From: Eubacterium sp. CAG:180
GTDB lineage: Bacteria > Bacillota > Clostridia > Oscillospirales > CAG-272
Length of the DNA stretch: 44,404 bases
Direction: 5' to 3'
Assembly (NCBI GenBank): GCA_963628215.1
Contig: CAVGEJ010000004.1
Coordinates: 1-44,404 of the forward strand
The notes beneath the pieces were generated by a model. That model was not told where the DNA came from and did not search any database. It saw only the letters and a list, made by a program, of their open reading frames with translations. Of the stretch, positions 327-33,684 are shown one piece after another. Every line of letters begins with the position of its first letter. The stretch's first letter is position 1. A program made the translations under genes and the position numbers.

Positions 327-339
327 TATTATTAAGAGG

Positions 340-11810: not shown

Positions 11811-13487
11811 ATGGCAGTTTTATCGGATATCGAGATCGCCCAAGCCTGCCGCCCGAAGCACATTTCCGAAATTGCGGAGCGCGCGGGCATTGCGCCGGAA
11901 TTTGTGGAGCAATACGGAAATTACAAAGCAAAAATTGATCTGTCCTATCTGAATTCCGCCGGAAAGAAAGACGGAAAGCTGATCCTCGTAACCGCCATTA
12001 CGCCGACTCCCGCAGGAGAAGGCAAGACCACAACGACCATCGGTCTTGCCGACGGGCTTGCCAGAATCGGTAAAAAAGCAGCGGTTGCCCTGCGCGAACC
12101 GTCTCTCGGACCTGTATTCGGCATCAAGGGAGGCGCCGCGGGCGGCGGGTATGCGCAGGTCGTTCCGATGGAGGATATCAACCTGCACTTTACGGGGGAT
12201 TTCCACGCCATCGGCGCAGCAAATAACTTGCTTGCCGCCATGATCGACAATCACATCCAACAGGGCAACGCGCTCGGGATCGACCCGCGCAGAATCACAT
12301 GGAAGCGTTGCGTGGACATGAACGACCGCCAGCTCCGCTTTATCGTGGACGGGCTTGGCGGGCGGGTCAACGGCACGCCCCGGGAGGACGGATTTGACAT
12401 CACGGTCGCCTCGGAAATCATGGCGATTCTTTGCCTGTCATCCTCTATTTCGGATCTGAAAGCCCGCCTTTCCCGCATCATCATCGGTTATACCTATGAC
12501 GAACGCCCCGTCACCGCAGGAGACCTAAAAGCGGCGGGCGCTATGACCGCGCTCCTCTGCGACGCGCTCAAGCCGAATCTGGTGCAAACGCTTGAAGGAA
12601 CGCCCGCGTTTGTACACGGCGGTCCGTTTGCAAACATTGCGCACGGCTGCAACTCGGTGCTTGCCACGCGGATGGCGTTGCAGTGCGCCGATTATGCCGT
12701 AACCGAAGCGGGATTCGGCGCAGACCTCGGCGCGGAAAAGTTTCTGGACATTAAATGCCGCATGGCGGGACTCTCGCCGGACGCCGCCGTTGTGGTGGCA
12801 ACCATTCGGGCATTGAAGATGCACGGCGGCGTTCCCAAAGCGGAACTGGGCGCGGAAAACCTGCCTGCGCTTGAGGCGGGACTCCCCAACCTTGCACGCC
12901 ATGTTTCCAATATGAAAACCGTTTTCGGTCTTCCCGTTGTGGTTGCTGTCAACCGTTTTCCGACCGACACGGATCGGGAAATCGCGTTCCTGATGGAAAA
13001 ATGTCGGGAAATGGGCGTTAACGCCGTTCTTTCCACCGTCCATGCGGAGGGCGGAAAGGGTGCGGAAACGCTCGCGCGGGAGGTTGTCCGCCTCTGCGAA
13101 GAGGAAACGGCTGATTTCCGTTTTGCTTACCCGGATGAAATGTCCCTGACGGAAAAGGTGGAAACCGTTGTCCGCCGCGTTTACGGCGGAGCGGGAGTTG
13201 CCCTGCTCCCCGCCGCCAAAAAACAGCTTGGCGCATTGGAAGCGCTCGGGTTCGGCAACTGCCCCGTCTGCATTGCCAAAACGCAATACAGCTTCTCGGA
13301 CGACCCGACAAAGGTCGGCGCGCCCGAAGGCTTTACGGTAACCGTTCGGAACGTGCGCGTTTCTGCCGGAGCAGGATTTGTCGTGGTGCTCACGGGCGAT
13401 ATCATGACCATGCCCGGGCTTCCGAAATCGCCTGCGGCGGAACGGATCGACGTAGACGAAAACGGAAAAATCAGCGGGCTGTTCTGA
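11811..13487 (+). CDS. fhs: formate--tetrahydrofolate ligase
   Basis: 558 aa. [14 protein letters not shown] and [27 protein letters not shown]. Last gene of the operon. Confidence 0.93.
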
Positions 13488-13518
13488 CAATCCGGAACTT
13501 ACCCGCAAAAAACAAGCC

Positions 13519-13554
13519 CTGCGCCCCGCGATACTTCGCGGGGCGCAGTTTTTT
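13519..13554. terminator. bidirectional intrinsic terminator between the convergent fhs and envelope operons
   Basis: CTGCGCCCCGCG (13519-13530) pairs perfectly with CGCGGGGCGCAG (13537-13548). It has TTTTTT on the plus side and an A-run (13507-13512) on the other side. Confidence 0.8.
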
Positions 13555-13574
13555 ATATGATTCCGAAACCGCCG

Positions 13575-14855
13575 TTATGCCGGATCGTCCGTCGGTTTGC
13601 GCCGGAACAGTCGCGCTTTCCGCACGTGACGGACAATGGCAACCGCGACGGACGCCACCGCAAGAACCGCGCCGATAAGGATCAAAAGGTAACCCCACAT
13701 GGGCATCCGGAACGCGATGCCGGGAACACAGACCACATACGTCCCTTTCCGGTCGGTCGTTGCCCTGACATATCTCCCCCATCCTTCGCTCTCGAGTTCC
13801 GTCAGAGAACCGTCCTCCTCGATGCGGTATACACTTGCCTTCCTGCGGTCAAACCGATCGTCCGCGCGGAAATACAGCACGAAATCCCCTGCCGCCGTCA
13901 CTTCTTCCCCTTCGCTGTCCAACAATTCCACGGTATAAACCTCGAACCGATCCGCCACCGTTTTCATGCGTTCCGCAACGGTCGCATACCCCGCCGCCGC
14001 GTCGGTCATCCGCCCTGCCAACAGGTAAGTCCCTGTCGGGAGCACGCCGTTCGGATCTTCCGAGCGAACCGCTTCGTTCTCACCCGTTACCGCGTGAATC
14101 ACCAACCGATACTCGGTGAAGGTGTTGTTATCCAAAGATGTCCGGTAGCGTTCGCTTTCGGCGCGGTAGAGAACCGTATAAGTTCCGACCTGCTCCAACG
14201 TCAGCTTTCCGTCCGTAATCTGCTGTTCGACTCCGCCGCAGAAAGCCTGCATTGTAACCGTGCATTTCTCCGCGCCGAGCGTTGCCGTTGCCGCAGGAAG
14301 CCGAAGTACCGTTCCCTGCCGCAGGGTATATTCCGCCGCGTCGGTGGCAATCACGGGGACAAACTCCGCAGGGCGTTCCCCGAGGTCGCGCACACTGTCC
14401 GAGAGTTTCTCCGCCGCCGAAAGATCCAGCGTTCCCGCAAACTCGGTCTGCCGCCCCATCGCGTTGATATACGCCGCGAAGGAAAGGCTTCCGCGCAGAA
14501 CCTCCGCGCCGACGGTGTAGGTTTCATAGGTCCACGACTCCTCTTTCTCCGTCGTTTTTCCGACCTCGGCGTCCCCCGCGACAAGGCGCAGATAACCGAT
14601 TGAGGACGAGAACCCGACGGTCAGATAGTACCGCCCGTTCAGAACCTCCACCGTGGCGGTTGACGTGAAGTTATCCGCGCCCATCCGGATATCGTACCGG
14701 ATCGGGACACGGTAAGTTCCGTCGCCCGAAAAACCGGTTTCCTCCGCCCGCGCGGTCAGAATGCCGGTCGGAAGAAGCCCGAAGCAGAGAACCGCAAGAA
14801 GTATTGCCGCGCAAAAGCGGGAAATCCGACCGATTCCGTTCTTTCTGTTCACCAT
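13575..14855 (-). CDS. secreted, C-terminally membrane-anchored surface protein of unknown function
   Basis: 426 aa. N-terminal signal peptide ending TARA/EE, and a C-terminal TM helix (WGYLLILIGAVLAVASVAVAIV) followed by a basic tail. The start overlaps the upstream stop by 7 nt (ATGGTGA). Any NEAT-like or Ig-like fold is speculative. Confidence 0.75.
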   Translation of the reverse strand: MVNRKNGIGRISRFCAAILLAVLCFGLLPTGILTARAEETGFSGDGTYRVPIRYDIRMGADNFTSTATVEVLNGRYYLTVGFSSSIGYLRLVAGDAEVGKTTEKEESWTYETYTVGAEVLRGSLSFAAYINAMGRQTEFAGTLDLSAAEKLSDSVRDLGERPAEFVPVIATDAAEYTLRQGTVLRLPAATATLGAEKCTVTMQAFCGGVEQQITDGKLTLEQVGTYTVLYRAESERYRTSLDNNTFTEYRLVIHAVTGENEAVRSEDPNGVLPTGTYLLAGRMTDAAAGYATVAERMKTVADRFEVYTVELLDSEGEEVTAAGDFVLYFRADDRFDRRKASVYRIEEDGSLTELESEGWGRYVRATTDRKGTYVVCVPGIAFRMPMWGYLLILIGAVLAVASVAVAIVRHVRKARLFRRKPTDDPA

Positions 14856-17800
14856 ACCCGATTCCCCTCACTGTCCTCAAAAATCGCAACCAAAGTCAGC
14901 GTATAGGTTTCGGGATCTGCCAGAGCGCCGCTGATCGGCTTGGTCAGATCCACCATCACAGGCGCGCCGTCCACGATCACCGCCCAACCGAGGAACGTAT
15001 AGCCCGCCGCGCCGCGAATCCGCAGATAGTAACCCGGATTCTGGAGCAGTTCTCCCTCGGGAACAGACGCAGATCCCAGCACATACGTGCCCGCAACATA
15101 TTGCTTCGGCTGTGTGAACACCATTCTGACTGTCCGACGGTAAACGGGACGGATGACCAGTTCCTCTTCGGTCAGTTCCGCACTGCGGATGTAAACCTTG
15201 TCCGTGCGCACCGCCGTACCGATGAAGCCGCCCGTCCATCCGACAAAGGTATAACTCGAAGCGTCCCCTTCTGTCGGCGGTTGCGGGATGAATGCCGAAA
15301 GATCGATACAGTAAGCGCCGCGTTCCGTGCCGCCGTCCTTGTCGGTCACCGTTGCACGGTAATACACCGTGTCGTAGGTCTTTCTGACCCCGTTGATCTC
15401 GGTTGTGATACGGATTCCGTCGTCCCATACCGCATACAGATACAGATTTGTGGTGTTGTAGTTCCCGTAATTCTCAAATTCTCCGCCCGGAAGCGTTGCA
15501 AGAGCGGGGCGCACGCGGCGGTCGGTCACCCAACCGAACAGGACCGAATCGGTGGGCAGGAAGTTCTCCCGTTGCAAAAGCGTTGCCATTTCTCCGCCGA
15601 GGGTGTAGGTCACCCGCTTTTGCAGAGTCCCGTCCGCAAACGGGTGATCCTCGTCGGTGACGAAGGTAATGTTCACGTCGCTCTTGTCGCTAAGCACGTC
15701 AAAGTACTGCAGGAAGGAGAAGTACGTATTCTCGCCGCCGAGTCCCGTCAGACGGTATTCATAAGCCAAACGGTATCTGCCTGCGGTGTAGAAATCGATT
15801 CTGACATTGTAGCCGTCGGCTTCGCAACGACCGTAACGCGCGGAAACGATGTTGTTCTGGAGCACATCCCCCTTGTATGCCTGAAGGATGAAAGAGACTG
15901 CCGAGCCAAGCTTGGTTCCGTCGGACGCATAGACATCGTTGCAAGGCGCAACATACTTTTTGCCGATGAAGTAAGCCTCGTAATCCAACAGTTCCGCGCT
16001 CTTTTTCCCGCCGAAGGTCACCTTGCAGAGGAATTTGCGCACCACAAGATCATCTCCCGACTGATAGGTCAGACTGACATAGAAGTAGCTTCCCGCCTCC
16101 ATTTCCTCGCGGAAATGCGCCGTCAGCGCCGAGACGCTGTCGGCAGGAATATCGGTCTCGGTCACACGGTCGGTGCAAAGCGTGTAGGAAATCAGCCCGA
16201 GGTCGGTTGTGTTCCCGTCCACGGTCAACGTCAGATTGCGGGAAAGTTCCGCGATCACCGTACCCGGATCGGGGTCATAGAAGGAGAATTCCCGCTCGAG
16301 CACCTTGCGTTTCCCGTTTTCATCGTAAGTGATATCACGCTGTTCCAGAATATTTCCGGCGGAATCCGCGATCACGTACTGCTTTGCACTGTCGGACTGA
16401 TACGCCAGTTCGTAGTAATACCGCTCCCCGTAAGGATTCTGCAATTCGTACAGCACGCGCGTGTCCTTTTCAATCAGGTTCATGGTCGTGACCGGAGTCA
16501 CCACACATTCGAAGAAGGTGGGCGTATACACGCCGCTCCGCACCGAGAATTTGACGGCGCGGATGATGTGAATTCCCTTCAGTCCCTCTTCGCTTGCGAA
16601 ATAGTTCTCGATGAAATTGCCGTCCTGCCCGTCCCATGTATAGCGCACGTCGGCAAGTTTCACCACGTCGCCGACGGCGAGTTCCGCGTTTGCGTCGTAG
16701 TCCGTCACCCGTCGGATCGTCGGCTCGGTGCGGTCGGTCAGATAAACCGTTGTGCGGATCTTTCCGCCCGCCGCAGTCCTGCGCTCGAAGACAACCGCAA
16801 GATTTGCATAGTTCCCGCCGTAAGAAAAGCTGCCCGGCAGGCTGACCGCCGCAGATTCGTCCGCCTTCCCGTTTGCCAGCCGATAAGCGTGAACGCCGAC
16901 CTCGGAGAAACTGCCCGTCGGGTCAACCTTCTCCGCATAAAGGCTTTCGAGCGACACGGTATCGCCCGCGTTCAGACTCTTGCCCGTCCGGATGTTCAAC
17001 GTCTCGCGCATGGCATGACTGCCGAGCGACTGGAGCGTGAGGGAATCGGCATACAGGTTGCCGTCCGACTCCTTGTAGCCGTACACCACCGCGCCCACGC
17101 GGAAGCGCGCAATCGAATACCGCGCGTCCGCAACCGGAGTTGCCGCCGTCTCACCCGTCGGCGAAACCGTAATGCGGCTGCTGTAAACCTTTCTGCCCGT
17201 ATAGGGCACGGAGAGGCTTTCCGCCGAGAAGAAAAAGTTAATCAGATGCGTTCCCATTCCGGTTTCCTTCAGCGCGGCATAGACCAGATTCCGCTCGGTC
17301 AGGTCGGATTCGTTGCCGGGATAGTACTGCATTTCCTCGGCATAAGCATAGCCGTCCTCGCCGCTCTCGGTCAGCGGGGTGTAATCCTTCGCCACCTCTT
17401 CGTCCGAAAGCTTGACCAGATGCCGATAGTCGATCGACAGAATCTGATTTGCAGCGCCCATACTGGAAGCCGCCTCCATAAAGCCCGTAATGCCGCCCAT
17501 AATCATACGCTCGCGCGTCAGGTCAGTTCCGAAATCGTAAATGGAGTAGTATTTTCCCGTGTCGGCGTGAAATTCCGCGACATAAGTTCCGTAGGTCGTG
17601 CCGCCGTAGGTGGCGGGGTAATAATCCGAGGTCACTTCCCCGTCGCCGAACGCGGACGCGTCCATATCGTAGGAAAGCTGAATCGGCGCGAAACTAGTCA
17701 TGCGGTTATAATAGTTTGCCGTAACCGGATTCAGGAGAGTGTTCGAAGTGCCGAGCATTCCGAGGTAAGGCGTAAACTCCTTGACCAGCGTGTACCGCCC

Positions 17801-18766
17801 GTTCTCGGCACGCAGATAGGAATAGACGGGGTTGAAGCCCGAACCCATGTTGGGCTTGTTGTTCTCGCTCCGATAGTAGGACTTGGCAAGATACCACCCG
17901 TCCTCAAGCGGTTGGGTGTAATCCGCATAGGGTTTGCTGAACCCGATAAAGCGCGAAACGGTGATCTCCGCCGTGTAAGAGGTCAGGGTTGCAATCCGCT
18001 CGGAGGAGGAAAGGTTGGTTGCCTCCCAGTTTACGGTGCGCACCTCCAGCCACAGCGGCGTTTCCATATTCCAATCGTCGATATTCAGAAAAACGGTCTT
18101 TCTGCTGTCGGCGTAATTTGCAATCGTTTTCGTGGAATCCAGATATGCGGACGTGTTTTTGCTGCTGTCCGACACGCGCAGCGCGGGAAGCGTATCCGCG
18201 TCGTTCATGTTCTCTACAATCCCGCAGTCGTAGGGAATCTTCAGATAGCGGTGTCCGTCGGAATTCTCGATGCACACCTCGTCGTACAGAATACAGTCGG
18301 CAAGATTCTTATAGCCGCCCGCCGCGTCGGTCATAGAGCCTTTGGAAACGGTTTCGGGAAGTACCGACACCGCAATTTCAAGATCGTATACCCCGCTTCC
18401 GGTCAGTTCCTCTTTTACCCACTTGGCATAAAGCGTCACATCCCGCATATACAGGTACAGAATCCCGTCCACATACGGGGTCGAATAAGCGGAGTCCAGA
18501 TACCACCCCGCGAAAACATAGCCCACGCGGGTGGGAGACGGCAGAACCGGCATATGATTGGCGGTATAAACGATGTCCTCAATCGGCGTGTCCAATCCGC
18601 TTGTATGGAACGAGATGGTGAACTCCCGATTTCCGTATTCGTTCCGAATCGCCTCGGTCGGGTCGGACACCGTTTTCTGCGAGCAAGCCGCAAGCGAAAG
18701 CGCTACGGTTGCCGCCATGCAGACCGATGCCAGGAATTTTGCTAATTTTCCGGTTTTCCGTTTCAT
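14849..18766 (-). CDS. giant lipoprotein with Listeria-Bacteroides (Flg_new / InlB B-repeat type) repeats
   Basis: 1305 aa. Lipobox LSLAAC-S after a basic N-terminus. Repeat signatures GYVFAGWYLDSAYSTPY, LFGWVTD, YTFVGWTGG and YTFLGWAV. GGAGGA RBS. Confidence 0.8.
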   Translation of the reverse strand: MKRKTGKLAKFLASVCMAATVALSLAACSQKTVSDPTEAIRNEYGNREFTISFHTSGLDTPIEDIVYTANHMPVLPSPTRVGYVFAGWYLDSAYSTPYVDGILYLYMRDVTLYAKWVKEELTGSGVYDLEIAVSVLPETVSKGSMTDAAGGYKNLADCILYDEVCIENSDGHRYLKIPYDCGIVENMNDADTLPALRVSDSSKNTSAYLDSTKTIANYADSRKTVFLNIDDWNMETPLWLEVRTVNWEATNLSSSERIATLTSYTAEITVSRFIGFSKPYADYTQPLEDGWYLAKSYYRSENNKPNMGSGFNPVYSYLRAENGRYTLVKEFTPYLGMLGTSNTLLNPVTANYYNRMTSFAPIQLSYDMDASAFGDGEVTSDYYPATYGGTTYGTYVAEFHADTGKYYSIYDFGTDLTRERMIMGGITGFMEAASSMGAANQILSIDYRHLVKLSDEEVAKDYTPLTESGEDGYAYAEEMQYYPGNESDLTERNLVYAALKETGMGTHLINFFFSAESLSVPYTGRKVYSSRITVSPTGETAATPVADARYSIARFRVGAVVYGYKESDGNLYADSLTLQSLGSHAMRETLNIRTGKSLNAGDTVSLESLYAEKVDPTGSFSEVGVHAYRLANGKADESAAVSLPGSFSYGGNYANLAVVFERRTAAGGKIRTTVYLTDRTEPTIRRVTDYDANAELAVGDVVKLADVRYTWDGQDGNFIENYFASEEGLKGIHIIRAVKFSVRSGVYTPTFFECVVTPVTTMNLIEKDTRVLYELQNPYGERYYYELAYQSDSAKQYVIADSAGNILEQRDITYDENGKRKVLEREFSFYDPDPGTVIAELSRNLTLTVDGNTTDLGLISYTLCTDRVTETDIPADSVSALTAHFREEMEAGSYFYVSLTYQSGDDLVVRKFLCKVTFGGKKSAELLDYEAYFIGKKYVAPCNDVYASDGTKLGSAVSFILQAYKGDVLQNNIVSARYGRCEADGYNVRIDFYTAGRYRLAYEYRLTGLGGENTYFSFLQYFDVLSDKSDVNITFVTDEDHPFADGTLQKRVTYTLGGEMATLLQRENFLPTDSVLFGWVTDRRVRPALATLPGGEFENYGNYNTTNLYLYAVWDDGIRITTEINGVRKTYDTVYYRATVTDKDGGTERGAYCIDLSAFIPQPPTEGDASSYTFVGWTGGFIGTAVRTDKVYIRSAELTEEELVIRPVYRRTVRMVFTQPKQYVAGTYVLGSASVPEGELLQNPGYYLRIRGAAGYTFLGWAVIVDGAPVMVDLTKPISGALADPETYTLTLVAIFEDSEGNRVW

Positions 18767-18881
18767 ATTCTCCTCCGGTATCTCCGCTTCCGCGCTCCCC
18801 CCGAACGGTCGGAGGGAGCGCTTTTGGGTAAGGCGTCACCATCGGAATTGCGTGGTGATGCCTTAAATCGGTATTGGTTTC

Positions 18882-21800
18882 TCAGTTGAGCGACGAGTTG
18901 GTAAACCGTTCGATGTCGGCGAGTTTTTCCTTCATGACCTCGTTCGACATTCCCTGCCACCAACCGTCCTCAAAGATCGTAGAATCCTGCGAGGTGATCT
19001 GATCTTTTGTTGTCCACGAATCGAAAGCGTCCGCGTTGTCAAAGTATGCAAACCGTTCGATGCCCATATCGGTGAACGCATTCTTATGAATCTTCTTGAC
19101 GATGCCGAGGGTGATTTCGTTGAAGGACTGGTTCTTGACGCCGTAGGTCACATAGTACGCCGAGCCTTCCATCATCTCATAGCGCATGACCGCCGTGCCC
19201 GCAACAGGCCAGTTGCTTTCGTAATAGCGCATGGTTCTGCCGATGGCAAACGTATCGCTTCCGCCCGCGTAGCCGCCTGCGGTTGCAAGGTACTGCACGT
19301 CGTAAACCGTAACGTCCACTTCGCCGCCCGCACTGTTCTTCTTCACAACCTCACTGCCCGTATACTTCACAATGCCGTAGTTGTTTCCCGCTCCGCCGCA
19401 GACGAAGAAGAAATCGCCAACCTGCGCATTCGGGTAAACATAGTCCTTCGACCACGGGTAAGCAAGCAGGTATCTGCCCTCTTCGCCCGCAACCGGCGTA
19501 AACATCTTGATGGCGCGGGTCTTGAACGCGTAGGGTGCAATGCTCTTGAGGTTTGCAAGCGGAATTGTGACGTTCAGTTCGCCGCTTGCAACGTAGAGGT
19601 TCTGCACGGGGTCGAGATAGCAACCCGCGTCGCCGAACGCATACGACCCGATCTCTTCCAGTCCGCCCTGCTCAATGACAACCAGGCGCAGGTTTGCGGT
19701 GTTGCGGAAAGCGTTCTCTCCGATCACCTTCACGCTGTTCTTGATGTAGACCTGCGCGATGTTCTCGTTGTCCATGAACGCGCCTGCGGCAATCGCGGTA
19801 ATCTTCTTGCCGTCGATCGCGGCGGGAATGTTGACGATGTAAAGCCCTTCCTCGCCCGGCACTTGCTGTGCGTTTGCGGAATCAAAGCCCGTCACGGTCA
19901 GAGTACCGTCCGCATTCTCCGAGGTGGTAATGCCGTACTTGTCGTACTCCAGTCTGAGCGTGATGTAAAGGTTTCTCGTCACGGTCGCGTTCGGGTCGAA
20001 GTCCCCGTTCAGTTCGCTCAGTTCGGTAATGACATAGGCGTAAGGAAGATCGTTCAGCCCAAGCACCTCTGCAATCGTCTCTTTCGTCAGCTTCTCACCG
20101 CTCTTGAGCAGTTTCTTGGAAGAATAGGACTTCGAGAAGCCCGTCATCTCGCTTGAAGCAAAGATGTTGACGGTAACCGCCGTGCCTTCGGCAATCTCCT
20201 TGGTGAACACCACGGGGTAGCCGTTCATTTCGGAATAAAGGAGCGTGTCGTAGTTACTGGTGGAATAAACAAAGTTGAAATTCTTGAATTTGGTCGGCAT
20301 TTTGGTGTTGTCGATCTCCACTCTGCCGATTCCCTCGCCCAGTGTGGACACCACCGAGAACCAATCCGCGCCCGCATAGTCTCTCGTCGGGTCGGCAATC
20401 ACATTCGGGCGATAGAGCAGACCACCGCGGGATTTCGTTGCGCCGTTATAGCCCGGAACGATCGAGACCGACGCATTGTAGGACGCCTGCGTGACGGTTG
20501 CCGGAAGCTTCAGCACGTCAGCCTCGATTGCCGAATACAGACCGACCTGAATTTTCGTCACGCCGCTCGGAATCTCCAGCACACCGTCTTTGACATTCTT
20601 CTGATAGTCCGAAACCAACACCTTATCCGTGCCGTTGACAAGATAGATGCGGCTGTCACTTTCGTCGCGCGTGAACACCGATTTTTCACCGAAGGTCACA
20701 TTCTCCGGCAGTCTCGCAATATTCGTCACGGAATCGGGAATTGCGATCTCGAAGTCATATGCCTTGTCGCTCTTGGGTTTGAGCACATCCGCCGTTGTCT
20801 CATATTCCGCCCAGAAGCAATCCAGCACCGACACCAGTTTGGAGGGCAGCGTAACCGACTTCAGTCTCGGCATGACGTTGAAGGAACGCTCCAGAACCTT
20901 CAGCGTGGAGGGCAACTGCACCGTTTCCAGTTCGCTTGCCTCGCTCCCGTTGAACTTGGCAATCCACTCGATGCCTTCGTCAAAGAGGAAGACCTTTGCG
21001 CCGCTGAAGTTCGAACCGAGCGTTTCCGCCATCACACCGGTTACATTTCCGTAGGTCACCTGAATGCCGTCCTCGGTCTCTTCCTGATCGACAACCGCGT
21101 TCGAGGAAAGAATCGACACGACCGGGAAATCCTTGATTCCGCTGACCGAGGAATCCACAAAATCAAGGTAGTAGTTGCCGCTGTCGCTGTCGCGGGAGAA
21201 GCCGAGTCCGGGCGTTTGCCAACGGACGCGGATCGTCATATTGCCCGAAACCGCTTTGTCGAAATTCACGCTGTTTCCGTCCGCCACATAGGAGACCGAA
21301 ACGGGATCCATATAGGATTGCAGGATGTACTTGCTCTCAAAGCTGACGTCGTTGCCGTCGCTGTCCTTCGCAACCGCCGCCCCGGGTGCGGTAAGCTTCT
21401 CCCCAACGGGAATATCGGCTTCGTACAGGGCGTTCTGATACCCGTCGCCGAAGGTGACGTGCGCGAGATATCTGCCGAACAGTTCGGTTACATCCGCGCC
21501 GACTTCGTATTTCACCGCATAGCTTGCGTCGGTATACCAACCGTCAAACGACAGGTTGTATTTCAGCGCGTCCGCAGTGTACTGCCATGTCAGCGCGTCC
21601 AGTTCCTCGAGCTTCTTCTGCTCGCTCTCGCCGCCGTTGACAGACACCTGTACCTGCGCGGGAACAAAATATGCGTACACCGTCACCGCGCCCGTCAAGC
21701 CGTCATTGCGGAACGGGGTCGGCGTTTCCGAGTAGTCGTACCAATCACGGAACACATAGTTCGTCTTGGTCGGATCTTGCGGCAGGGTGACCTTGCCGTC

Positions 21801-21968
21801 CTTGGCGTCAACTTGGGCGTATTGCTCCCAAGCGCCGTTTTCGTTCTGCACCATAAAGGTAACAGACGCGTTTTCCTTGCTCCCGCACGATATGAGCGTG
21901 CAGGCACTGACAAGCAGCATCGCGAGGCAGAGCAGAATGCCACGGACGCTCTTTCTGATTGTTGTCAT
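18882..21968 (-). CDS. giant lipoprotein with Listeria-Bacteroides repeats and BspA-type leucine-rich repeats
   Basis: 1028 aa. Lipobox TLISC-G. NYVFRDWYDY and LSFDGWYTDASY repeats. LRR_5-like segments (for example ITAIAAGAFMDNENIAQVYIKNSVKVIGENAFRNTANLRLVVI). AGGAGG upstream. Confidence 0.8.
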   Translation of the reverse strand: MTTIRKSVRGILLCLAMLLVSACTLISCGSKENASVTFMVQNENGAWEQYAQVDAKDGKVTLPQDPTKTNYVFRDWYDYSETPTPFRNDGLTGAVTVYAYFVPAQVQVSVNGGESEQKKLEELDALTWQYTADALKYNLSFDGWYTDASYAVKYEVGADVTELFGRYLAHVTFGDGYQNALYEADIPVGEKLTAPGAAVAKDSDGNDVSFESKYILQSYMDPVSVSYVADGNSVNFDKAVSGNMTIRVRWQTPGLGFSRDSDSGNYYLDFVDSSVSGIKDFPVVSILSSNAVVDQEETEDGIQVTYGNVTGVMAETLGSNFSGAKVFLFDEGIEWIAKFNGSEASELETVQLPSTLKVLERSFNVMPRLKSVTLPSKLVSVLDCFWAEYETTADVLKPKSDKAYDFEIAIPDSVTNIARLPENVTFGEKSVFTRDESDSRIYLVNGTDKVLVSDYQKNVKDGVLEIPSGVTKIQVGLYSAIEADVLKLPATVTQASYNASVSIVPGYNGATKSRGGLLYRPNVIADPTRDYAGADWFSVVSTLGEGIGRVEIDNTKMPTKFKNFNFVYSTSNYDTLLYSEMNGYPVVFTKEIAEGTAVTVNIFASSEMTGFSKSYSSKKLLKSGEKLTKETIAEVLGLNDLPYAYVITELSELNGDFDPNATVTRNLYITLRLEYDKYGITTSENADGTLTVTGFDSANAQQVPGEEGLYIVNIPAAIDGKKITAIAAGAFMDNENIAQVYIKNSVKVIGENAFRNTANLRLVVIEQGGLEEIGSYAFGDAGCYLDPVQNLYVASGELNVTIPLANLKSIAPYAFKTRAIKMFTPVAGEEGRYLLAYPWSKDYVYPNAQVGDFFFVCGGAGNNYGIVKYTGSEVVKKNSAGGEVDVTVYDVQYLATAGGYAGGSDTFAIGRTMRYYESNWPVAGTAVMRYEMMEGSAYYVTYGVKNQSFNEITLGIVKKIHKNAFTDMGIERFAYFDNADAFDSWTTKDQITSQDSTIFEDGWWQGMSNEVMKEKLADIERFTNSSLN

Positions 21969-22046
21969 GTTTACATGACCTCCTTTGAATATATGTCAAC
22001 CCGCTTGCGCGGTGTTGCATCAGGAATTGGCTGCTGTCCGACTCCG

Positions 22047-24314
22047 TCAGATGTCATAGCCCGCAAGAATTGCGGACGGCGTTTTGGTCAGCACGAAGAG
22101 ATACGGAATCAGCGAGACAGCGACCATCAGAAGGCTGCCTGCCGCCGCTCCGACCGCCGCAAGCCCGAGGAAGGGCGTCACCGACAGGTTCAGAATTCCG
22201 TACCGCACCGCGATCAGCGCCACGGTGACCGCCGAGAACAGCAGGAACGGCAGAACGCTGCCCGCAACCGCACGAACGGTCTCGCGGAACAACAGATTGC
22301 TCCGGTTTACGCCGATGGCGCGCAGAACGCCGTATTCCTTGCTGTTGCGGATGCTTGCGGATTTCTCGATAAAGAAGTAGATGAGATACAAGAGAACGAT
22401 TACGACCGCATAGAGTACCAAACCGCCCGACGCGTCGCGCCGCGCTTCCGCATCCTGTCTGTCATAAATCCCCTGCACGTCCAAAGTGGTAATTCCCTTT
22501 TCGGCAAGCAGATTCTTCAGCGCCCCAAATTGCTCCGCGTCCTTGGCGGAGACGGCAAAGCATGCCTGCGAGTCGGTTGCAAGTCCGGTTTCCCCCGGTT
22601 TGAGGTAAACGAAGATGTTGGAAAGCACGTTTTTGTTTACGATAATCCGCAGATCGGTTGTCATCACGTCGCGCGTCAGGCGGAACTGTCTGACATACAT
22701 CGGCTTGCTTCCGACAATCGAGATTGCGGTGGTCAGTTCCTTGAGCCGGCTGTTTGCGGCAGTGATGCGCGCGTCTGCGTCGGCGGTATCGGTCATCATT
22801 TTATATAGCGAATTCCGGCTGATTTCCAGAATCACGCGGTTATCCTCCAAACCCTCGCTGTCATCCGCCAGACAGATTTCGGTGGAAAAGCGATTGGAGG
22901 AAAAATTCTGTTCGAGGAAGATCTCGCCCGGGTCGGAAAGCCGCGCGGACGCATACACGCCGAGGTGATTCACATAGTCAATCCGATTGAACCAGACCGC
23001 GCTTTCCTCGCCCTCCACAATGCCGCATACGGGATACGTACCGTTCAGCGTAACCATCAGCATCGCAGAATCGCGCTTCAGTTCTTCCAAACGCAAGCCC
23101 GCTTTGATCTTTTCGGCAAGCCCGCGCGAGATCAGCACCTCGCCGCGCTCGGGAAGCCTGCCCCAAAGCCCCGCAGGCTCGCCGTCGGTCGGAATCGACT
23201 TCGGCGCAAACCCGAGTTCCAGTTCCGAGAGCGCCGCAACCTCGCCGTAGGAAAAGCTTCCCGTTTCAAAGGCAGTCTCGAAAAAGTCAATCGAATCATA
23301 TCGGGACGGATCGGTCACGCGGAGTTCGGAATAGCTGTTCAGCCCTGTGAACACCGTGCTTTCGGAAAGTGTTTTGTGCTCGGTCGTCACATTCAGCGCC
23401 TCGTTCACGGAGAAGGCAAAGAAGCAGAGCACCACCGCCATGGCAAGAATGAACACCTGCTTGAACGCGTCCCCCGCGCCAAATCCCTCGCCGTCGTCGC
23501 GTTTCCGCCGCAGAATCGACCGCAACCGAAACAGTCTGCCGTTGCGCTTTGCCGTGCTTCCGCGAAAATCGGAAAGCGCGCTGTGCCCGCTTTCGCTGTG
23601 CGGCGCGCGGTCATAAGTTCCGGGCGCGAGGTCGCTGTCGTCAATTTCCGCGTCCTCCACCAACTCGCCGTCCACAATCTTGATGTGGCTGTCGGCGTAG
23701 GTTCGGATCAGCGACACCTCATGCGTTACAACCACCACCAACCGCGTTTTGGAAATCTCCTTGAGAATATCCATGACCTTCACGGTGTTCTCCGCGTCCA
23801 GATTTCCCGTCGGCTCGTCCGCCAGAAGGACGTCGCCGCCCTTTACAATCGCCCTTGCAATCGCAACCCGCTGTTGCTGACCGCCTGAGAGCGCGTCGCC
23901 GCGCTTGTTGCGGAAACGCTCCATGTCAACCAGTTTCAGCGCCTCGTCGGTGCGGCGGGCAATCTCGTTTTCATCGCGGAAGCCCGCAATCAGCATCTGG
24001 TTGCGCAGAATCTGCGCGATGGTGTAGCCCTTTTCGAGATAGTAATTCTGAAAAACGAATCCGATTTTGGCGTTTCGGATGCGGTCGGTTCTGCCGCTTG
24101 TGCAAACGCCGTCAATATAGACCTTGCCGCTGTCCGCGCGCTCCAGACCGCCGATGATGTTGAGCAGAGTCGTTTTTCCGCTCCCGCTCTTTCCGTAAAT
24201 GCAGACCAACCCGCAGTCGGGAAGCGTAAAGGACACGCCCTTGAGCACCCGATTCGCATTTCGGGAATGCCGCCGGAAGGTCTTTGTGATGTTTTCCACA
24301 CGGATAACTGCCAT
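22047..24314 (-). CDS. MacB-type ABC protein: N-terminal ATPase fused to an FtsX-family permease with a large extracytoplasmic domain
   Basis: 755 aa. Walker A GKSGSGKTT, Q-loop VFQN, signature LSGGQQQR, Walker B LLADEPTGNLD, H-loop VVTHE. These are followed by TM1, about 330 aa of hydrophilic insert, and three C-terminal TM helices. Confidence 0.85.
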   Translation of the reverse strand: MAVIRVENITKTFRRHSRNANRVLKGVSFTLPDCGLVCIYGKSGSGKTTLLNIIGGLERADSGKVYIDGVCTSGRTDRIRNAKIGFVFQNYYLEKGYTIAQILRNQMLIAGFRDENEIARRTDEALKLVDMERFRNKRGDALSGGQQQRVAIARAIVKGGDVLLADEPTGNLDAENTVKVMDILKEISKTRLVVVVTHEVSLIRTYADSHIKIVDGELVEDAEIDDSDLAPGTYDRAPHSESGHSALSDFRGSTAKRNGRLFRLRSILRRKRDDGEGFGAGDAFKQVFILAMAVVLCFFAFSVNEALNVTTEHKTLSESTVFTGLNSYSELRVTDPSRYDSIDFFETAFETGSFSYGEVAALSELELGFAPKSIPTDGEPAGLWGRLPERGEVLISRGLAEKIKAGLRLEELKRDSAMLMVTLNGTYPVCGIVEGEESAVWFNRIDYVNHLGVYASARLSDPGEIFLEQNFSSNRFSTEICLADDSEGLEDNRVILEISRNSLYKMMTDTADADARITAANSRLKELTTAISIVGSKPMYVRQFRLTRDVMTTDLRIIVNKNVLSNIFVYLKPGETGLATDSQACFAVSAKDAEQFGALKNLLAEKGITTLDVQGIYDRQDAEARRDASGGLVLYAVVIVLLYLIYFFIEKSASIRNSKEYGVLRAIGVNRSNLLFRETVRAVAGSVLPFLLFSAVTVALIAVRYGILNLSVTPFLGLAAVGAAAGSLLMVAVSLIPYLFVLTKTPSAILAGYDI

Positions 24315-24315
24315 A

Positions 24316-26388
24316 TCAGCCCTTTACCCCCCTTCTCAGCGACCGACGGATGCTCTGCCCGCCGATGGTTCGGTTGAACCCGAACGCAACGCATTCCACA
24401 ATCAGAAGCAACATCCCCTCGATGAAGAAATACTGTCCGAGCGGAATGAAAGCAAGTCCGCTCCCCGGAAGCATCGCCGCAATCAGGCTTACAAGCGGCA
24501 ACAGCCCCAAGGTCGGCAGGAAAATCAGCGCCATCTGGACATAGAGCGAACGCGATGACACCTTTCCCGCAATGCCGAGCGTGCGATAGACGGCAAAGTC
24601 GGTCTGGAAAATCTTCACGCTTCTGCCGAAGATGACCGAAATCAGCGCCGCGAACAGCAGGCAGACCGCAATCAGCGCAATATAATATAGCACATTCATC
24701 GTGTAGAGCCCGGCGGCATTCGTCACATAAACCGTGCTTGCCGAAAGCATTCCGATCAACCCGTCGGGAAGCTGCGCAAGCGCCGCCTGCGCCGTTTGTT
24801 CGTCGGGGAAATAGAGCACCGAGCGGCTCGCGCTCTCCCGCTCCCCTTCAAAAATCCTGCTGTAATCCGCCTCGCTCAGCTTTACAATCAGCCGCCCCGA
24901 ACGGGCGTCGTCCTTTTCGGTATCGTCGGTGATCGTGTAGGAACGGTTGGATTGCACTGCAGGAACAGCTTCGTAGCGGGTTGCCTGATAGATATCGGAA
25001 TTGACCAGACGCATCGTCCCTTCCTCCAGAGCGGAATCCGCCTCGTAAGTATAGACGGTTACGCTGTTTTCCCCAAGCCGCATGGAGGTGTTGATGGCGC
25101 GCAGGCGTCCACCGTTTTCCTCTGCATCCGTATGGGAGAGATACAGAAGCACGCGATCGTCCGAAAGCGTTGTCCGCACGTCAATCTCCGTAAGTCCCGC
25201 GCCCGCTTCGGAAAAGACCGAGGCAATCGCAGCCCCGTCCCGCTCGGAGGAGCGCGGAAGCACCAGTACCGCATGTCCCGCTTCGGGATTGTGCACATAG
25301 GGCGCATACAGGCAGGTCACCGTGTAAGCGGAGAGCATTCCGCTTTCCCGCAGAACGTTCACCGTAAATTCCGAAAAAGATTGATCCGAGAGGCAGAATC
25401 CCGCCTTCGTCAGCCCCGCCGCCTCGTCGGTTTCTTCGGCGGTCACGCGACCGCTCTCGCCCGACAGAATCACCTTCCCCGCCACGCCGACGGTATCGAG
25501 CGTTGCACGGATCGGGCGGATCAGCGAAGAACCGAACACCGAAAGCGTGAGGAACAGCGTGACCGCGCAGACCAACAGCGCAAGACTCATCATCAGCGTA
25601 AAGCGCGGACGGCTTTTGTAGTTCAGCGTTCCGATAAAGAAGGTGTCCCGCCATGCCTTGCGACGGCTGACCTTCCCGTCCGGAATCGCGGGACAGGCGC
25701 TTGCCGTCGGCGCTTCCAGAACGCGATCCTCCTGCACAGCGCCGTCGCGGATGGTGATACGCCGCGTGGCGTATGCCTCGAAAAATTCGGGATTATGCGT
25801 GACAACGATCACCAGTTTGTCCTGCGACACGTCCTTCAGCAGTTTCGCAATCTCGCGCGACGCTTTGACATCCAGATTTCCCGTCGGTTCGTCCGCAAGG
25901 ATAATCGGCGCGTCCTTCGCAAGCGCCCGCGCGATCACCGTGCGTTGCTTCTCTCCGCCCGAGAGCCTGCTTCCGCGGCGGTTCATCTGGCGGGTCAGCC
26001 CCACCTTTTCAATCAGTTCCCGCGCCTTTTCGCGGCGAACCGCGCGGTTCTCAAAACGGAGCAGAGCCAACTCCACATTCTCGAGCACGGTCAGATTTTC
26101 GATGATATTGAAGTCCTGAAAAACCGTTGCGATGTATTTCTCGCGGTATTTCTCCCATTCTTCCGCACCGTAATGCGACGTTTCCTCGTCGCAGATGTAC
26201 AGCTCGCCTTCCTCGTAACTGTCGTTCGCGCCGATGACGTTCAGCAGTGTGGATTTTCCGCTCCCGCTCTCGCCTTCAATCGTCACGAATTCATTGGTAT
26301 CGAAATCCAGATTGATTCCGCGGATACCGATGGTCAGAATATCGTTGCTGTCATAAATTTTTCCGATGTTCTTCAGCCGCAGTAGCAA
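24316..26388 (-). CDS. MacB-type ABC protein (paralogue): N-terminal ATPase fused to an FtsX-family permease
   Basis: 690 aa. TTG start with GGAG 8 nt upstream and an in-frame TAA five codons upstream. GESGSGKST, LSGGEKQR, ILADEPTGNLD, VVTHN. Same TM1, large insert and 3-TM layout. One-nt gap to the next gene. Confidence 0.85.
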   Translation of the reverse strand: MLLRLKNIGKIYDSNDILTIGIRGINLDFDTNEFVTIEGESGSGKSTLLNVIGANDSYEEGELYICDEETSHYGAEEWEKYREKYIATVFQDFNIIENLTVLENVELALLRFENRAVRREKARELIEKVGLTRQMNRRGSRLSGGEKQRTVIARALAKDAPIILADEPTGNLDVKASREIAKLLKDVSQDKLVIVVTHNPEFFEAYATRRITIRDGAVQEDRVLEAPTASACPAIPDGKVSRRKAWRDTFFIGTLNYKSRPRFTLMMSLALLVCAVTLFLTLSVFGSSLIRPIRATLDTVGVAGKVILSGESGRVTAEETDEAAGLTKAGFCLSDQSFSEFTVNVLRESGMLSAYTVTCLYAPYVHNPEAGHAVLVLPRSSERDGAAIASVFSEAGAGLTEIDVRTTLSDDRVLLYLSHTDAEENGGRLRAINTSMRLGENSVTVYTYEADSALEEGTMRLVNSDIYQATRYEAVPAVQSNRSYTITDDTEKDDARSGRLIVKLSEADYSRIFEGERESASRSVLYFPDEQTAQAALAQLPDGLIGMLSASTVYVTNAAGLYTMNVLYYIALIAVCLLFAALISVIFGRSVKIFQTDFAVYRTLGIAGKVSSRSLYVQMALIFLPTLGLLPLVSLIAAMLPGSGLAFIPLGQYFFIEGMLLLIVECVAFGFNRTIGGQSIRRSLRRGVKG

Positions 26389-26418
26389 TGTTCTCTCTCC
26401 TTACCGCAAAATCGTGCA

Positions 26419-26434
26419 GTTAGCCTTGGCTAAC
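26419..26434 (-). promoter_or_regulatory. operator-like palindrome GTTAGCC-TT-GGCTAAC (RBS-proximal site)
   Basis: Arms are perfect 7-bp inverted repeats. The site lies 30 nt upstream of the TTG start. Its 22-nt context is 20/22 identical to 33669-33690. Confidence 0.6.
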
Positions 26435-26493
26435 CAATTGGCTTTGGAATCGGTGAAAGGAAGATTCCCTTCACCGTTTTTACCGCTCATTCG

Positions 26494-26509
26494 GTTAGTC
26501 CAAACTAAC
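26494..26509 (-). promoter_or_regulatory. operator-like palindrome GTTAGT-CCAA-ACTAAC (overlaps the predicted transcription start)
   Basis: Same GTTAG-N6-CTAAC frame, positioned 10-25 nt downstream of the -10 hexamer. Confidence 0.55.
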
Positions 26510-26518
26510 ACACGCCAT

Positions 26519-26547
26519 ATTATAGCATAGCAGACAAGCCTTGTCAA
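26519..26547 (-). promoter_or_regulatory. consensus sigma-70 promoter of the envelope operon
   Basis: On the minus strand: TTGACA (26547-26542), exact 17-nt spacer, TATAAT (26524-26519). Confidence 0.75.
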
Positions 26548-26659
26548 TATTCTTTCCGAAAGTTATCTCGGGCTAATTTTTTCGGGGTGGCGGAAGGGGA
26601 TTCCCGACCTCCTGATTTCGGGCAAAACAGAACCCTTTCCGTTTGATGGGAGAGGATTT

Positions 26660-26953
26660 ATCCCCCCTCATCAGTCGCTTACGCGACAGCTTCCCCCCCA
26701 AGGGGAAGCCTTTTTGCAAGAGTTGCCTCGTCCTTTCAATTGCAAATCAAATACAAAAAGATACAAAATTGATTTTTCGAAAATCGCAACGCTTACAAAG
26801 GCATCCTCTCGGTGGAAATTCTTTTTGCAAAAACTTCTTCACATTTCCAACCAAGCAAACAGAAGAAAAACCTGATTTTTCGGAAATCGCACTGTGTACA
26901 GAAGGCTTCCCCTTGGGGGGAAGCTGTCGCGCAAGCGACTGATGAGGGGGGAT
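26660..26953. repeat. MITE-like element: 50/51-bp terminal inverted repeats around an AT-rich 193-bp core with internal direct repeats
   Basis: The left arm (26660-26710) and the reverse complement of the right arm (26904-26953) differ by one substitution and one C indel. Each arm holds two small hairpins (GTCGC..GCGAC and GCTTCCCC..GGGGAAGC). The core has a direct repeat GATTTTTCGRAAATCGCA (26771-26788, 26874-26891) and a degenerate extra copy of the right-arm sequence near 26800-26820. Confidence 0.7.
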
Positions 26954-27002
26954 CTCCTTGCTCCAACCGCAAATAAATGCTTTTTTTGCATACAAATTTA
27001 GC

Positions 27003-28415: not shown

Positions 28416-29089
28416 AATACCACCGCAAGGAGTGCGCCGACGGCAATCCCCAGAACGAAGATCACGTCGGACAGACAAACCGTTTCCTTTTTGTAAACCG
28501 TATCGGGAACTTTCTCAAGAGAGAAGCCGCGCGTTTCAACCGACAGCGAGAGCGTATCGGAAATATCAACCAACCGCATGACAAGCGGAACAAGGAAAGC
28601 GCGGTAGAAAATACGCGGATTCAGCGCGCTTCCCGCGCCGCGCGTCCGCATTGCCTCCCGCACCCGCCGGATCTCCGCGCCGAGGACAGGCGGAAAGGAG
28701 GTTGCGATCAGCATTCCGAGCGTCACCCCGCGCGGAACTTTCAGGGTGCGGAGACAACGCGTCATGTCCGCCGCCTCGGTGCTCATTCCGAGCGCCGCCG
28801 CGAGAAGCACCGCGCCGAACCGGTTGACCATCGCCAACGCAGACAGCGAATCGTGACCGTAGGCAAAATAGGCAATCGCGCCGAATGCCCCGCCGAACAG
28901 CGCCAACATCGGCAAAACCCGCAGAACGCCCCGCGCGCCGCCGAACAGGCAGAGCCAGAGGTATGCGCAACCGAGAAAAACGGTGCACCGCAGACTCCGC
29001 GCCGTGCAAAGTCCGAACACGAGGAAAAACAGCCCCGCAAGAAAAACGAAGATGGGATAGACCCGCCGCTTCCGAGAGAAAAAGCTCAT
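28412..29089 (-). CDS. ECF transporter T component (EcfT/CbiQ family)
   Basis: Start set at ATG 29089 (MSFFSRKRRVYPIF), an ATGA overlap with the upstream stop. Polytopic, with two coupling-helix-like motifs (EAMRTRGA and SVETRGF). Confidence 0.75.
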   Translation of the reverse strand: MSFFSRKRRVYPIFVFLAGLFFLVFGLCTARSLRCTVFLGCAYLWLCLFGGARGVLRVLPMLALFGGAFGAIAYFAYGHDSLSALAMVNRFGAVLLAAALGMSTEAADMTRCLRTLKVPRGVTLGMLIATSFPPVLGAEIRRVREAMRTRGAGSALNPRIFYRAFLVPLVMRLVDISDTLSLSVETRGFSLEKVPDTVYKKETVCLSDVIFVLGIAVGALLAVVL

Positions 29090-33259: not shown

Positions 33260-33637
33260 TCATGACGCGCCTCTGCCCATTCCCGAACGGATGAAATTCG
33301 CCACCCCGTTCCGCGTGGCGTCCGAAAACGCACAGCTGACATTCAGCGCGTCCTCATACGCCTGCTCGGGAGGAGTTCCGCAATGCACCGACAAATGCGT
33401 GGAGATAAAGCCGATGATCGTCATGTATTCCCCGAGAATCCGCAAACCTTCTTCGGTTAATGTGACAAGACGCTCGGTCTTTTCGATGTACCCCTTGTCC
33501 CGCAGGCGCTCCACGGCGTTGTAAGCGCTGACCTTGGACACGCCCAGCCTTGCGGCAATGTCTTTTTGTTTCACCGCCGCTCCGCTCTCGGCAAGCCTGT
33601 TCGCCGCAATCAGATACCGCAGTTCCGATGAACTCAT
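33260..33637 (-). CDS. DtxR/MntR-family-like winged-helix transcriptional regulator
   Basis: Start set at ATG 33637, with GAGGTG 6 nt upstream (track start 33646 is a GTG). 125 aa. ELRYLIAANRL...VKQKDIAARLGVSKVSAYNAVERLRDKGYIEK...VTLTEEG aligns by eye with the MntR/DtxR N-terminal DNA-binding domain. First gene of the operon. Confidence 0.65.
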   Translation of the reverse strand: MSSSELRYLIAANRLAESGAAVKQKDIAARLGVSKVSAYNAVERLRDKGYIEKTERLVTLTEEGLRILGEYMTIIGFISTHLSVHCGTPPEQAYEDALNVSCAFSDATRNGVANFIRSGMGRGAS

Positions 33638-33668
33638 ATTCATCACCTCACAAATAAATTCGCAATTA

Positions 33669-33684
33669 GTTAGCCTTAGCTAAC
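33669..33684 (-). promoter_or_regulatory. operator-like palindrome GTTAGC-CTTA-GCTAAC (RBS-proximal site)
   Basis: Lies 31 nt upstream of the regulator ATG. Its 22-nt context is 20/22 identical to 26419-26440. Confidence 0.6.

Follow-up and report, generated by a model that had tools for sequence, protein, structure and literature searches.

The 44,404-nt stretch of the Eubacterium sp. CAG:180 genome considered here (contig CAVGEJ010000004.1, positions 1 to 44,404; hereafter, the window) includes a five-gene operon, ABC1-ABC2-g3-g4-g5, that encodes two large ATP-binding cassette (ABC) proteins, two lipoproteins of more than 1000 aa, and a membrane-anchored surface protein. We see about an even chance that this cassette is the surface half of a two-operon, metal-regulated heme (heme-iron) scavenging regulon, with a MacB-type ABC pair working outside the membrane. 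Support for the heme link is moderate. We infer that heme is the ligand and that metal or heme is the signal, as we do the direction and target of the mechanical work of the ABC pair. The evidence comes from the modeled folds of g5 and ABC1, from predicted operators shared with a neighboring operon, and from a comparison of related loci. An earlier description of the operon, made from the sequence without database searches (the original prediction), served as the starting point.

A conserved five-gene operon

The features of the operon are as follows.

24316-26388, minus strand: ABC1, 690 aa, with a TTG start and AAGGAG ahead of it
22047-24314, minus strand: ABC2, 755 aa
18882-21968, minus strand: g3, a 1028-aa lipoprotein
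14849-18766, minus strand: g4, a 1305-aa lipoprotein
13575-14855, minus strand: g5, 426 aa
26519-26547, minus strand: promoter, with TTGACA (26547-26542), a 17-nt spacer, and TGc plus TATAAT (26524-26519)
13519-13548, both strands: bidirectional intrinsic terminator, with a 13-bp stem (11 G-C pairs) and T-runs on each side

Re-reading of the open reading frames (ORFs), promoter, and terminator bore out the original prediction of five minus-strand genes served by one promoter and one terminator, and the spacings that it gave (1, 78, and 115 nt in order from ABC1, then a 7-nt overlap of g4 with g5) were reproduced exactly. The promoter is the sole 12/12 sigma-70 match within the 13.7 kb from 13400 to 27100, the terminator is common to the operon and to the convergent fhs (formate-tetrahydrofolate ligase gene), and no terminator-like sites are listed in the 78-nt or 115-nt internal gap. 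A single, tightly packed operon running from ABC1 to g5 is supported. The gap between g3 and g4 (18767-18881) does contain two GC-rich hairpins without T-runs, which might tune the ratio of upstream to downstream transcript or shield a processed mRNA.

Scanning one genome per species yielded 38 related loci (numbered L001 and so on below), in records titled mostly as uncultured gut Clostridia, Christensenellales/Christensenellaceae, and related metagenome-assembled genomes. The ABC pair and the giant lipoproteins, which the original prediction had coupled, stay adjacent in these relatives: the order ABC1-ABC2-g3-g4 is kept in 27 of the 28 loci whose downstream flank is 6 kb or longer, and g5 comes next where the sequence reaches that far. 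The exception is L038, in which ABC1 is split into two ORFs (204 and 431 aa); we dropped it as a case of an ABC1 gene without partners, given that the split suggests a decayed copy. Lookups that start from g5 homologs recover the same cassette, as do metagenome contigs. In nearly all loci, no more than 3 nt separate the stop of ABC1 from the start of ABC2, or the two overlap; g4 and g5 overlap too, a conserved coupling that fits a fixed stoichiometry. Beyond the scanned loci, ABC2-type membrane parts form 946 clusters at 90% identity.

The NEAT-type protein, the ABC pair, and the giant lipoproteins

Within the operon, the last protein points to heme. The layout of g5 comprises a signal peptide, a NEAT-fold domain at about aa 45-145, Ig-like beta domains, the motif FxMPMWGY, a C-terminal transmembrane (TM) helix, and a basic tail. 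The original prediction had rightly given this protein a signal peptide and a C-terminal anchor, and had overlooked the NEAT domain. In family searches, g5 matches no Pfam or NCBIfam family at default thresholds: Pfam NEAT scores 12.2 bits for g5 and 26.8 bits for its best homolog (gathering score 32.8), and HemeBinding_Shp gives a weak match in one homolog. The link was made only by a fold search and by a profile search against 1.84 billion representative proteins. In Foldseek, the AlphaFold2 model of g5 (pLDDT 76) matches Staphylococcus aureus IsdB (E 7e-5) and IsdH, within a range of E 7e-5 to 4e-4, and it aligns with the single NEAT domains IsdX1, IsdX2-N5, and Hbp2-N2 at TM-scores of 0.67-0.69 (root-mean-square deviation 3.0-3.1 Å, 114-125 aligned columns); IsdC is a weaker match. 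The sequence profile, built from 30 homologs, defines a small family (53 clusters below 1e-30) and reaches, at E 3.6e-8, a three-NEAT, LPXTG-anchored protein (P0487) that itself scores 131 bits for NEAT and 51 bits for Shp. A hidden Markov model (HMM) of the g5 NEAT region alone matched two of the NEAT domains of P0487, at 1e-9 and 4e-7. The family profile had no matches among PDB sequences.

Three residues, M58 (in K-M-G-A-D-N-F), Y129, and M133 (in Y-I-N-A-M), are invariant in the 30 homologs, and both methionine positions recur in remote relatives, as judged by eye. Shp is held by a C-terminal membrane segment. With its signal peptide, NEAT-like domain, beta-rich spacer, TM helix, and basic tail, g5 therefore follows the Shp plan, and, on its modeled fold together with the profile link, we class it as a NEAT-type, Shp-like protein. 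Shp of Streptococcus pyogenes is a distant NEAT relative that binds heme by two methionines (PMC8977872, reference 53 therein). A separate observation concerns F-x-M-P-M-W-G-Y itself (g5 residues 382-390; 13683-13709), which is invariant, stands directly ahead of the C-terminal TM helix and basic tail, and is common to g5 and a remote, 206-aa NEAT relative (P0442). The three-part layout is like that of a sorting or docking signal, but no known CTERM model matches it.

Type VII ABC systems do not carry a substrate across the membrane; ATP hydrolysis is turned into movement of their outside domains. The domains of the two ABC proteins are arranged as follows.

ABC1: nucleotide-binding domain (NBD), aa 1-225; elbow and TM1, 242-285; mixed alpha/beta outside domain, ~286-558; TM2-4, 559-676
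ABC2: NBD, aa 1-225; TM1, ~283-301; outside domain, ~302-630; three C-terminal TM helices

The catalytic motifs that the original prediction called complete in both proteins can all be read in the two translations (Walker A, Q-loop, LSGG(E/Q)(K/Q)QR, Walker B with its Glu, and H-loop). Both proteins match ABC_tran in Pfam (E 7e-29 for ABC1, 2e-30 for ABC2) and the LolD, FtsE, and MacB models of NCBIfam (E 1e-42 to 1e-48). The best NCBIfam matches of both NBDs are to LolD, FtsE, MacB, DevA, and bacteriocin-export type ATPases, the top family being a "putative bacteriocin export" ATPase at 182 and 166 bits versus a cut-off of 255, and the closest solved structures are of the same ATPase type, with BceA and the Streptococcus pneumoniae Spr0694 type included.

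In both proteins, hydropathy analysis predicts TM1, then a long hydrophilic region, then three TM helices at the C-terminus, which agrees with the MacB topology that had been proposed, although an insert of 300-330 aa describes the outside domain of ABC2 (~330 aa) and not that of ABC1 (~275-285 aa). The description of the pair as tandem paralogs holds for the ATPase domains (36% identity over aa 2-221, NBD only) but not for the membrane and outside parts, between which no similarity was detectable either pairwise or by profile-profile alignment of the whole membrane parts with hhalign. When the C-terminal parts are compared, hhalign places 141 columns in register on a motif that follows TM2, at E 0.059 (KEYGIYRAIGVN in the ABC2 family consensus, KEYGVLRAIGVN in the ABC2 of the window, and DFAVYRTLGI in ABC1). 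The label "ATPase-FtsX fusion" likewise stands in part: the fold of ABC1 is upheld by Foldseek, but neither protein matches Pfam FtsX (PF02687) or MacB_PCD (PF12704). Both families are also absent from 11 homologs of the ABC1 membrane part scanned at E up to 10, and from the precomputed Pfam annotation of 240 homologs among the matches listed. HMMER profiles of the membrane and outside parts of ABC1 and ABC2 found no FtsX-type chain among PDB sequences (PsbH, V-ATPase c, and glucuronidase came up and were set aside as chance matches), and a homolog search with the ABC2 profile returned close relatives only, with no bridge to FtsX.

In the AlphaFold2 model of ABC1 (35 input sequences, mean pLDDT 80), elbow and TM1 form a helix of 44 residues, the outside domain is mixed alpha/beta, and further helices span 45, 32, and 27 residues. 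Against the PDB, Foldseek ranks seven full-length MacB structures highest for this model (E 2e-28 to 9e-23), aligned over about 720-750 columns at TM-scores of 0.51-0.61; structures matched in the NBD only, HrtA among them, reach E 9e-19 at best. Because the seven best matches are all full-length MacB, we assign ABC1 the MacB architecture: as modeled, it is a MacB-type (type VII) fold whose sequence has drifted past the family HMMs. Topology, NBD subfamily, and the post-TM2 motif support placing ABC2 in the same class, without proving it, and the two proteins presumably form a heterodimer. No gene for a MacA- or TolC-like partner was seen in the operon.

The lipoboxes that had been read in the third and fourth genes are confirmed as LISC in g3 (Cys28) and LAAC in g4 (Cys28), the cysteine being near-invariant in 23 homologs of g3 and invariant in 24 homologs of g4. 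HMM searches agree with the repeats that had been named, with Flg_new in both lipoproteins and LRR_5 in g3. More specifically, g3 has two N-terminal Flg_new repeats and BspA-type leucine-rich repeats (LRRs), with LRR_5 at ~723-778; every g3 homolog has Flg_new and a BspA-type LRR_5, and the family profile matches solved BspA-type LRR proteins (4gt6, 4fs7, PcpA, and TpLRR). Flg_new is present in every g4 homolog, with Flg_new_2 additionally in nine, and no other recognizable domain was found in g4 or its homologs; the best-conserved region of g4 is the membrane-proximal N-terminal Flg_new domain (aa 41-120). InlB B-repeats appear beside BspA-type LRRs among the matches of the g3 and g4 families. 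Both lipoproteins are only 27-36% identical to those of most relatives (~60% to the nearest, L007), whereas at the same loci identity is 47-67% for the membrane part of ABC1, 39-54% for that of ABC2, and 33-53% for g5. That g3 and g4 diverge much faster than the ABC proteins is the pattern expected of exposed, possibly diversifying receptors. The HMM derived from g5 found no hidden NEAT-like segments in g3, g4, or the outside domains of the ABC proteins.

Predicted operator boxes and the CydDC-like/ECF operon next door

The second operon, and the sites that it appears to share with the first, are listed here (ECF, energy-coupling factor).

26495-26508: operator box 1, TTAGTCCAAACTAA (TTAG-N6-CTAA), starting 11 nt downstream of the -10 hexamer
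26420-26433: operator box 2, TTAGCCTTGGCTAA, in the 5' leader; ~32 nt separate it from the ABC1 start
26451-26476, minus strand: leader hairpin, between the two boxes
33781-33809, minus strand: second promoter, TTGACA-17-TATAAT
33670-33683 and 33727-33740: operator boxes 3 and 4, TTAG-N6-CTAA, between the second promoter and the regulator gene
33260-33646, minus strand: regulator gene, 128 aa, DtxR family ("type B"), 7 kb from the ABC1 operon
31475-33202, minus strand: CydD-like ABC exporter (383.8 bits; NCBIfam cut-off 435)
29775-31478, minus strand: CydC-like ABC exporter (315.5 bits; NCBIfam cut-off 329)
29086-29778, minus strand: ECF S component (Trep_Strep), by domain family
28412-29197, minus strand: ECF T component (CbiQ), by domain family
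27003-28478, minus strand: ECF double ATPase, by domain family

The palindrome TTAG-N6-CTAA occurs four times in the window against an expectation of 0.09 (more than one copy in 0 of 100 shuffles), and all four copies are confined to two leaders, that of the ABC1 operon and that of the regulator operon. Among the 31 related loci with enough upstream sequence, 29 have one to three boxes within 300 nt upstream of ABC1 (TTAG-N6-CTAA in 21, GTTC-N8-GAAC in nine, one locus having both). Several relatives show the same box type again at the head of the regulator/CydDC operon, and the boxes are otherwise rare across the related 10-20 kb loci. In L001, L029, L034, and L041, DtxR-family genes lie directly upstream of ABC1, and in L043 and L044 they lie 10 nt after g5. 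The boxes at the promoters of both operons are thus predicted to be operators of one DtxR-family regulon. Because boxes also precede other metal-type genes in relatives (L036, 2931-6824; L034, 7325-9164), where an ABC ATPase with a 742-aa permease and ZIP-like metal transporters were recognized by eye, the regulon is possibly wider than the two operons of the window.

The regulator matches the Fe_dep_repress helix-turn-helix domain (E 1e-7; 32.4 bits versus a cut-off of 26), with a weak MntR match as well. Two subfamilies can be told apart in the related loci: type A keeps the canonical metal-ligand motifs (E..MYLE and AC.IEH), and type B is without them. It should be noted that type B proteins (compared in the window and in L006, L007, L009, L012, L013, and L015) keep an invariant "HCGT" and "CA(F/V/I)SD", that is, His-Cys and Cys positions, and that in some relatives a canonical paralog adjoins the type B gene. 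Judging from its residues, the type B regulator may sense something other than free metal.

The 128-nt leader RNA of the ABC1 operon (26386-26513, minus strand) is predicted to fold strongly (minimum free energy -48.4 kcal/mol, z = -5.6), with the two boxes pairing with each other around the central hairpin. This fold is probably a by-product of having two similar palindromes close together, although it could alternatively be a real 5' stabilizing or regulatory structure. No riboswitch or known RNA was found in these 128 nt.

Gene order in the second operon is regulator, CydD-like, CydC-like, and then ECF S, T, and ATPase. CydDC is named a heme ABC transporter by NCBIfam. Corrinoid uptake by the CbiQ-type ECF module was considered and is less likely, as a cobalamin riboswitch is absent and the sites present are DtxR-type boxes.

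The window is ordinary chromosome, with a purine operon to the left and genes for an EF-G paralog, GpsA, and MetRS to the right. A ZMP/ZTP riboswitch (336-436, plus strand; 49.3 bits versus a gathering score of 39) is placed ahead of the purine biosynthesis operon (purC, purF, purM, purN, an IMP cyclohydrolase gene, purH, purD, and purL, with fhs after them). Between the ECF ATPase gene and the ABC1 promoter is a ~295-bp element (26660-26953) that looks like a miniature inverted-repeat transposable element (MITE): its 45-nt terminal inverted repeats are 93% complementary, and it contains internal direct repeats. No further copies of the arms are found in the window. Downstream of the cassette in L043 (14990-21254) is a gene for a ~3760-aa protein with MutS_I, SNF2-like, helicase, and primase-polymerase-like domains, which adjoins WYL, LexA-like, and sigma-70 genes in a context resembling a mobile element.

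Proposed heme scavenging, rival explanations, and known systems

We favor heme or iron acquisition over generic lipoprotein display because of three features taken together: the NEAT domain of g5, the DtxR-family boxes shared by the two operons, and the CydDC-like/ECF neighbor. In the proposed mechanism, a DtxR-family repressor would act on the TTAG-N6-CTAA boxes just downstream of two consensus promoters, one driving the regulator, the CydDC-like pair, and the ECF genes, and the other driving ABC1-ABC2-g3-g4-g5. On derepression, the lipid-anchored g3 (with its BspA-type LRRs) and g4 would be displayed as receptors for heme or hemoproteins. The Shp-like NEAT domain of g5 would take the heme, probably via Met58/Met133 and/or Tyr129, and hand it toward the membrane, where the neighboring ECF transporter is the likely importer by analogy with LhaSTA and SiaFGH. 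The ABC1/ABC2 heterodimer would be a fused MacB-type (type VII), ATP-driven engine outside the membrane. Its likeliest work would be to move heme off or between partner proteins or from the outer leaflet, or else to remodel or release the lipoprotein receptors; heme stripping, leaflet extraction, and lipoprotein release are not mutually exclusive as candidate tasks.

By analogy, every transporter type in the regulon (ECF, CydDC, and MacB-family) has a heme precedent. ECF heme importers include LhaSTA, which lies within the isd locus beside NEAT genes (PMC7299338), SiaFGH (PMC12671055, PMC6593403), and Lsa1836-1840 (10.1101/864751), and in the MacB family HrtBA extracts heme from the membrane (PMC11282960). 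LRR surface proteins that take part in heme capture by Gram-positive bacteria include Shr, HupY, Hal, and IlsA (PMC6593403, PMC8977872).

Several points weigh against this proposal. The regulator in the window, being of type B, does not have the canonical DtxR/MntR metal ligands. g5 scores only ~12 bits on Pfam NEAT and has YINAM in place of the canonical YXXXY. No heme-degrading enzyme or substrate-binding-protein importer was found nearby. The CydDC-like and ECF operon is directly upstream in only roughly half of the related loci, the others having the CydDC-like pair alone (one locus) or unrelated genes. Finally, type VII systems are usually exporters or extractors, and heme detoxification would fit equally.

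The alternative that survives best, which we still think unlikely, is that the MacB-type pair is a dedicated extractor, releaser, or activator of the two giant lipoproteins, comparable to LolCDE or FtsEX and independent of heme, with g5 as an accessory anchor. The MacB fold of ABC1 agrees with such a role, as do the strictly kept order of the ABC genes, g3, and g4 and the presence of two unlike type VII subunits (compare LolC/LolE), and the best-conserved, membrane-proximal Flg_new domain of g4 is a plausible docking site. It leaves the NEAT domain of g5, the DtxR-type operators, and the CydDC/ECF neighbors unexplained, however, and it does not exclude the heme model: receptors released as hemophores would merge the two.

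Quite unlikely, in our view, is protection of the HrtBA kind, in which the MacB-type pair would clear surplus heme from the outer leaflet and expel it, protecting the cell as the remaining genes gather heme. HrtBA is indeed a MacB-family heme extractor (PMC11282960), HrtA is among the structural matches of the NBD, and the streptococcal uptake operon likewise includes an exporter pair, SiaDE (PMC6593403). But HrtB is heme-induced and, as a small permease that forms a homodimer, works with an ATPase made separately, whereas the repressor-controlled operon described here encodes two large, dissimilar, fused chains along with capture proteins, and the outside domains of these chains (275-330 aa) are far bigger than heme extrusion alone seems to need.

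We give little credence to an adhesion or host-interaction module, in which g3 and g4 would be BspA/internalin-like adhesins, metal scarcity would be the host cue, and the NEAT-like domain would bind a protein instead of heme. In its favor are the BspA-type LRR and InlB B-repeat matches, the fast divergence of g3 and g4 (27-36% identity), which is usual in exposed adhesins, and the example of HupY/LrrG, both an adhesin and a heme binder (PMC6593403); this explanation, though, has no role for two ATPases with intact catalytic motifs, and it does not account for the ECF/CydDC-like link or for the Met and Tyr conserved in the region of the NEAT pocket. It is very improbable that a MacB/BceAB-like transporter here exports a peptide or bacteriocin or confers antimicrobial-peptide resistance, as both NBDs, although matching the putative bacteriocin export ATPase family best, fall far under its cut-off, the operon has no peptide precursor, immunity gene, or two-component sensor, and the regulation is DtxR-type, even though BceA and Spr0694-type ATPases are among the nearest solved structures.

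Returning to the heme-scavenging model, the closest overall match among known systems is, by analogy, the sia/hts operon of S. pyogenes (shr-shp-siaABC-siaDE-siaFGH), which is repressed by the DtxR-family MtsR and encodes Shr (NEAT and LRR), Shp, SiaABC, SiaDE, and SiaF/G/H (ECF S, T, and A) (PMC6593403). The two have in common a DtxR-family repressor (predicted here), a membrane-anchored Shp-type NEAT protein, and a large LRR-bearing surface receptor, as well as ECF S, T, and A genes that come after an ABC exporter pair, as in siaD-E-F-G-H, the last likeness being one of domain families and their order (PMC6593403, PMC8977872). They differ in that there is here no substrate-binding lipoprotein or type II importer (SiaABC), a fused MacB-type pair being found instead; in that the putative receptors, which are lipoproteins with Flg_new and BspA-type LRRs, lack NEAT domains; and in that the genes are divided between two operons.

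With type VII systems (MacB, LolCDE, FtsEX, HrtBA, BceAB, and YbbAP) the ABC proteins share an NBD of the LolD/FtsE/MacB subfamily, a large outside domain inserted between the first two of four TM helices, and long TM1 and TM2 helices. As in MacB, the NBD is fused N-terminally, and the ABC1 model aligns with MacB over its full length. Unlike those systems, ABC1 and ABC2 match neither the Pfam FtsX and MacB_PCD families nor, in sequence-profile searches, solved FtsX-type chains; the operon encodes two adjacent fused chains that differ greatly; and the partners are two proteins of more than 1000 aa and a NEAT protein. HrtBA resembles the proposed system as a MacB-family system dealing with heme at the outside face of the membrane (PMC11282960), and differs in its separate ATPase, small homodimeric permease, heme induction, and lack of associated surface proteins. 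LolCDE offers a heterodimer of two unlike type VII permease subunits, as we propose here, and acts on lipoproteins; however, it is from diderms, has a separate LolD ATPase, and passes its cargo to LolA, none of which is seen here. The Isd, IsdX, Hal, IlsA, HupY, and LhaSTA proteins provide parallels in the NEAT heme relay, in heme capture by LRRs, and in an ECF importer beside NEAT genes (PMC8977872, PMC6593403, PMC7299338), but they are sortase-anchored (LPXTG), Fur- or MtsR-regulated, and without a MacB-type component.

The individual parts (type VII ABC proteins, NEAT/Shp proteins, BspA-LRR/Flg_new lipoproteins, and DtxR operators) are known. In the literature searched, we found no description of a fused, presumably heterodimeric, divergent MacB-type pair in a NEAT operon without a binding-protein importer. 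A further possibility, which we offer tentatively and regard as doubtful, is that the cassette represents an undescribed class of Gram-positive heme acquisition, in which a heterodimeric type VII mechanotransducer replaces the binding-protein importer and, by spending ATP in the cytoplasm, strips or hands over heme on the outer side between giant lipoproteins, a Shp-like shuttle, and an ECF importer, under a DtxR member that has lost the metal site and may respond to another signal, for example heme.

The supply of heme and heme-iron in strictly anaerobic gut Firmicutes is poorly understood, and the known Gram-positive systems are almost all from pathogens. The cassette is widespread, as the 946 ABC2-type clusters and 38 loci indicate, and it would allow concrete tests of how a type VII ABC machine works with defined partners outside the membrane in a NEAT-based relay. 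The operator boxes offer a handle by which the whole regulon could be defined. If the proposal is correct, the cassette may represent a new function both for the MacB fold and for Flg_new/BspA-LRR lipoproteins.

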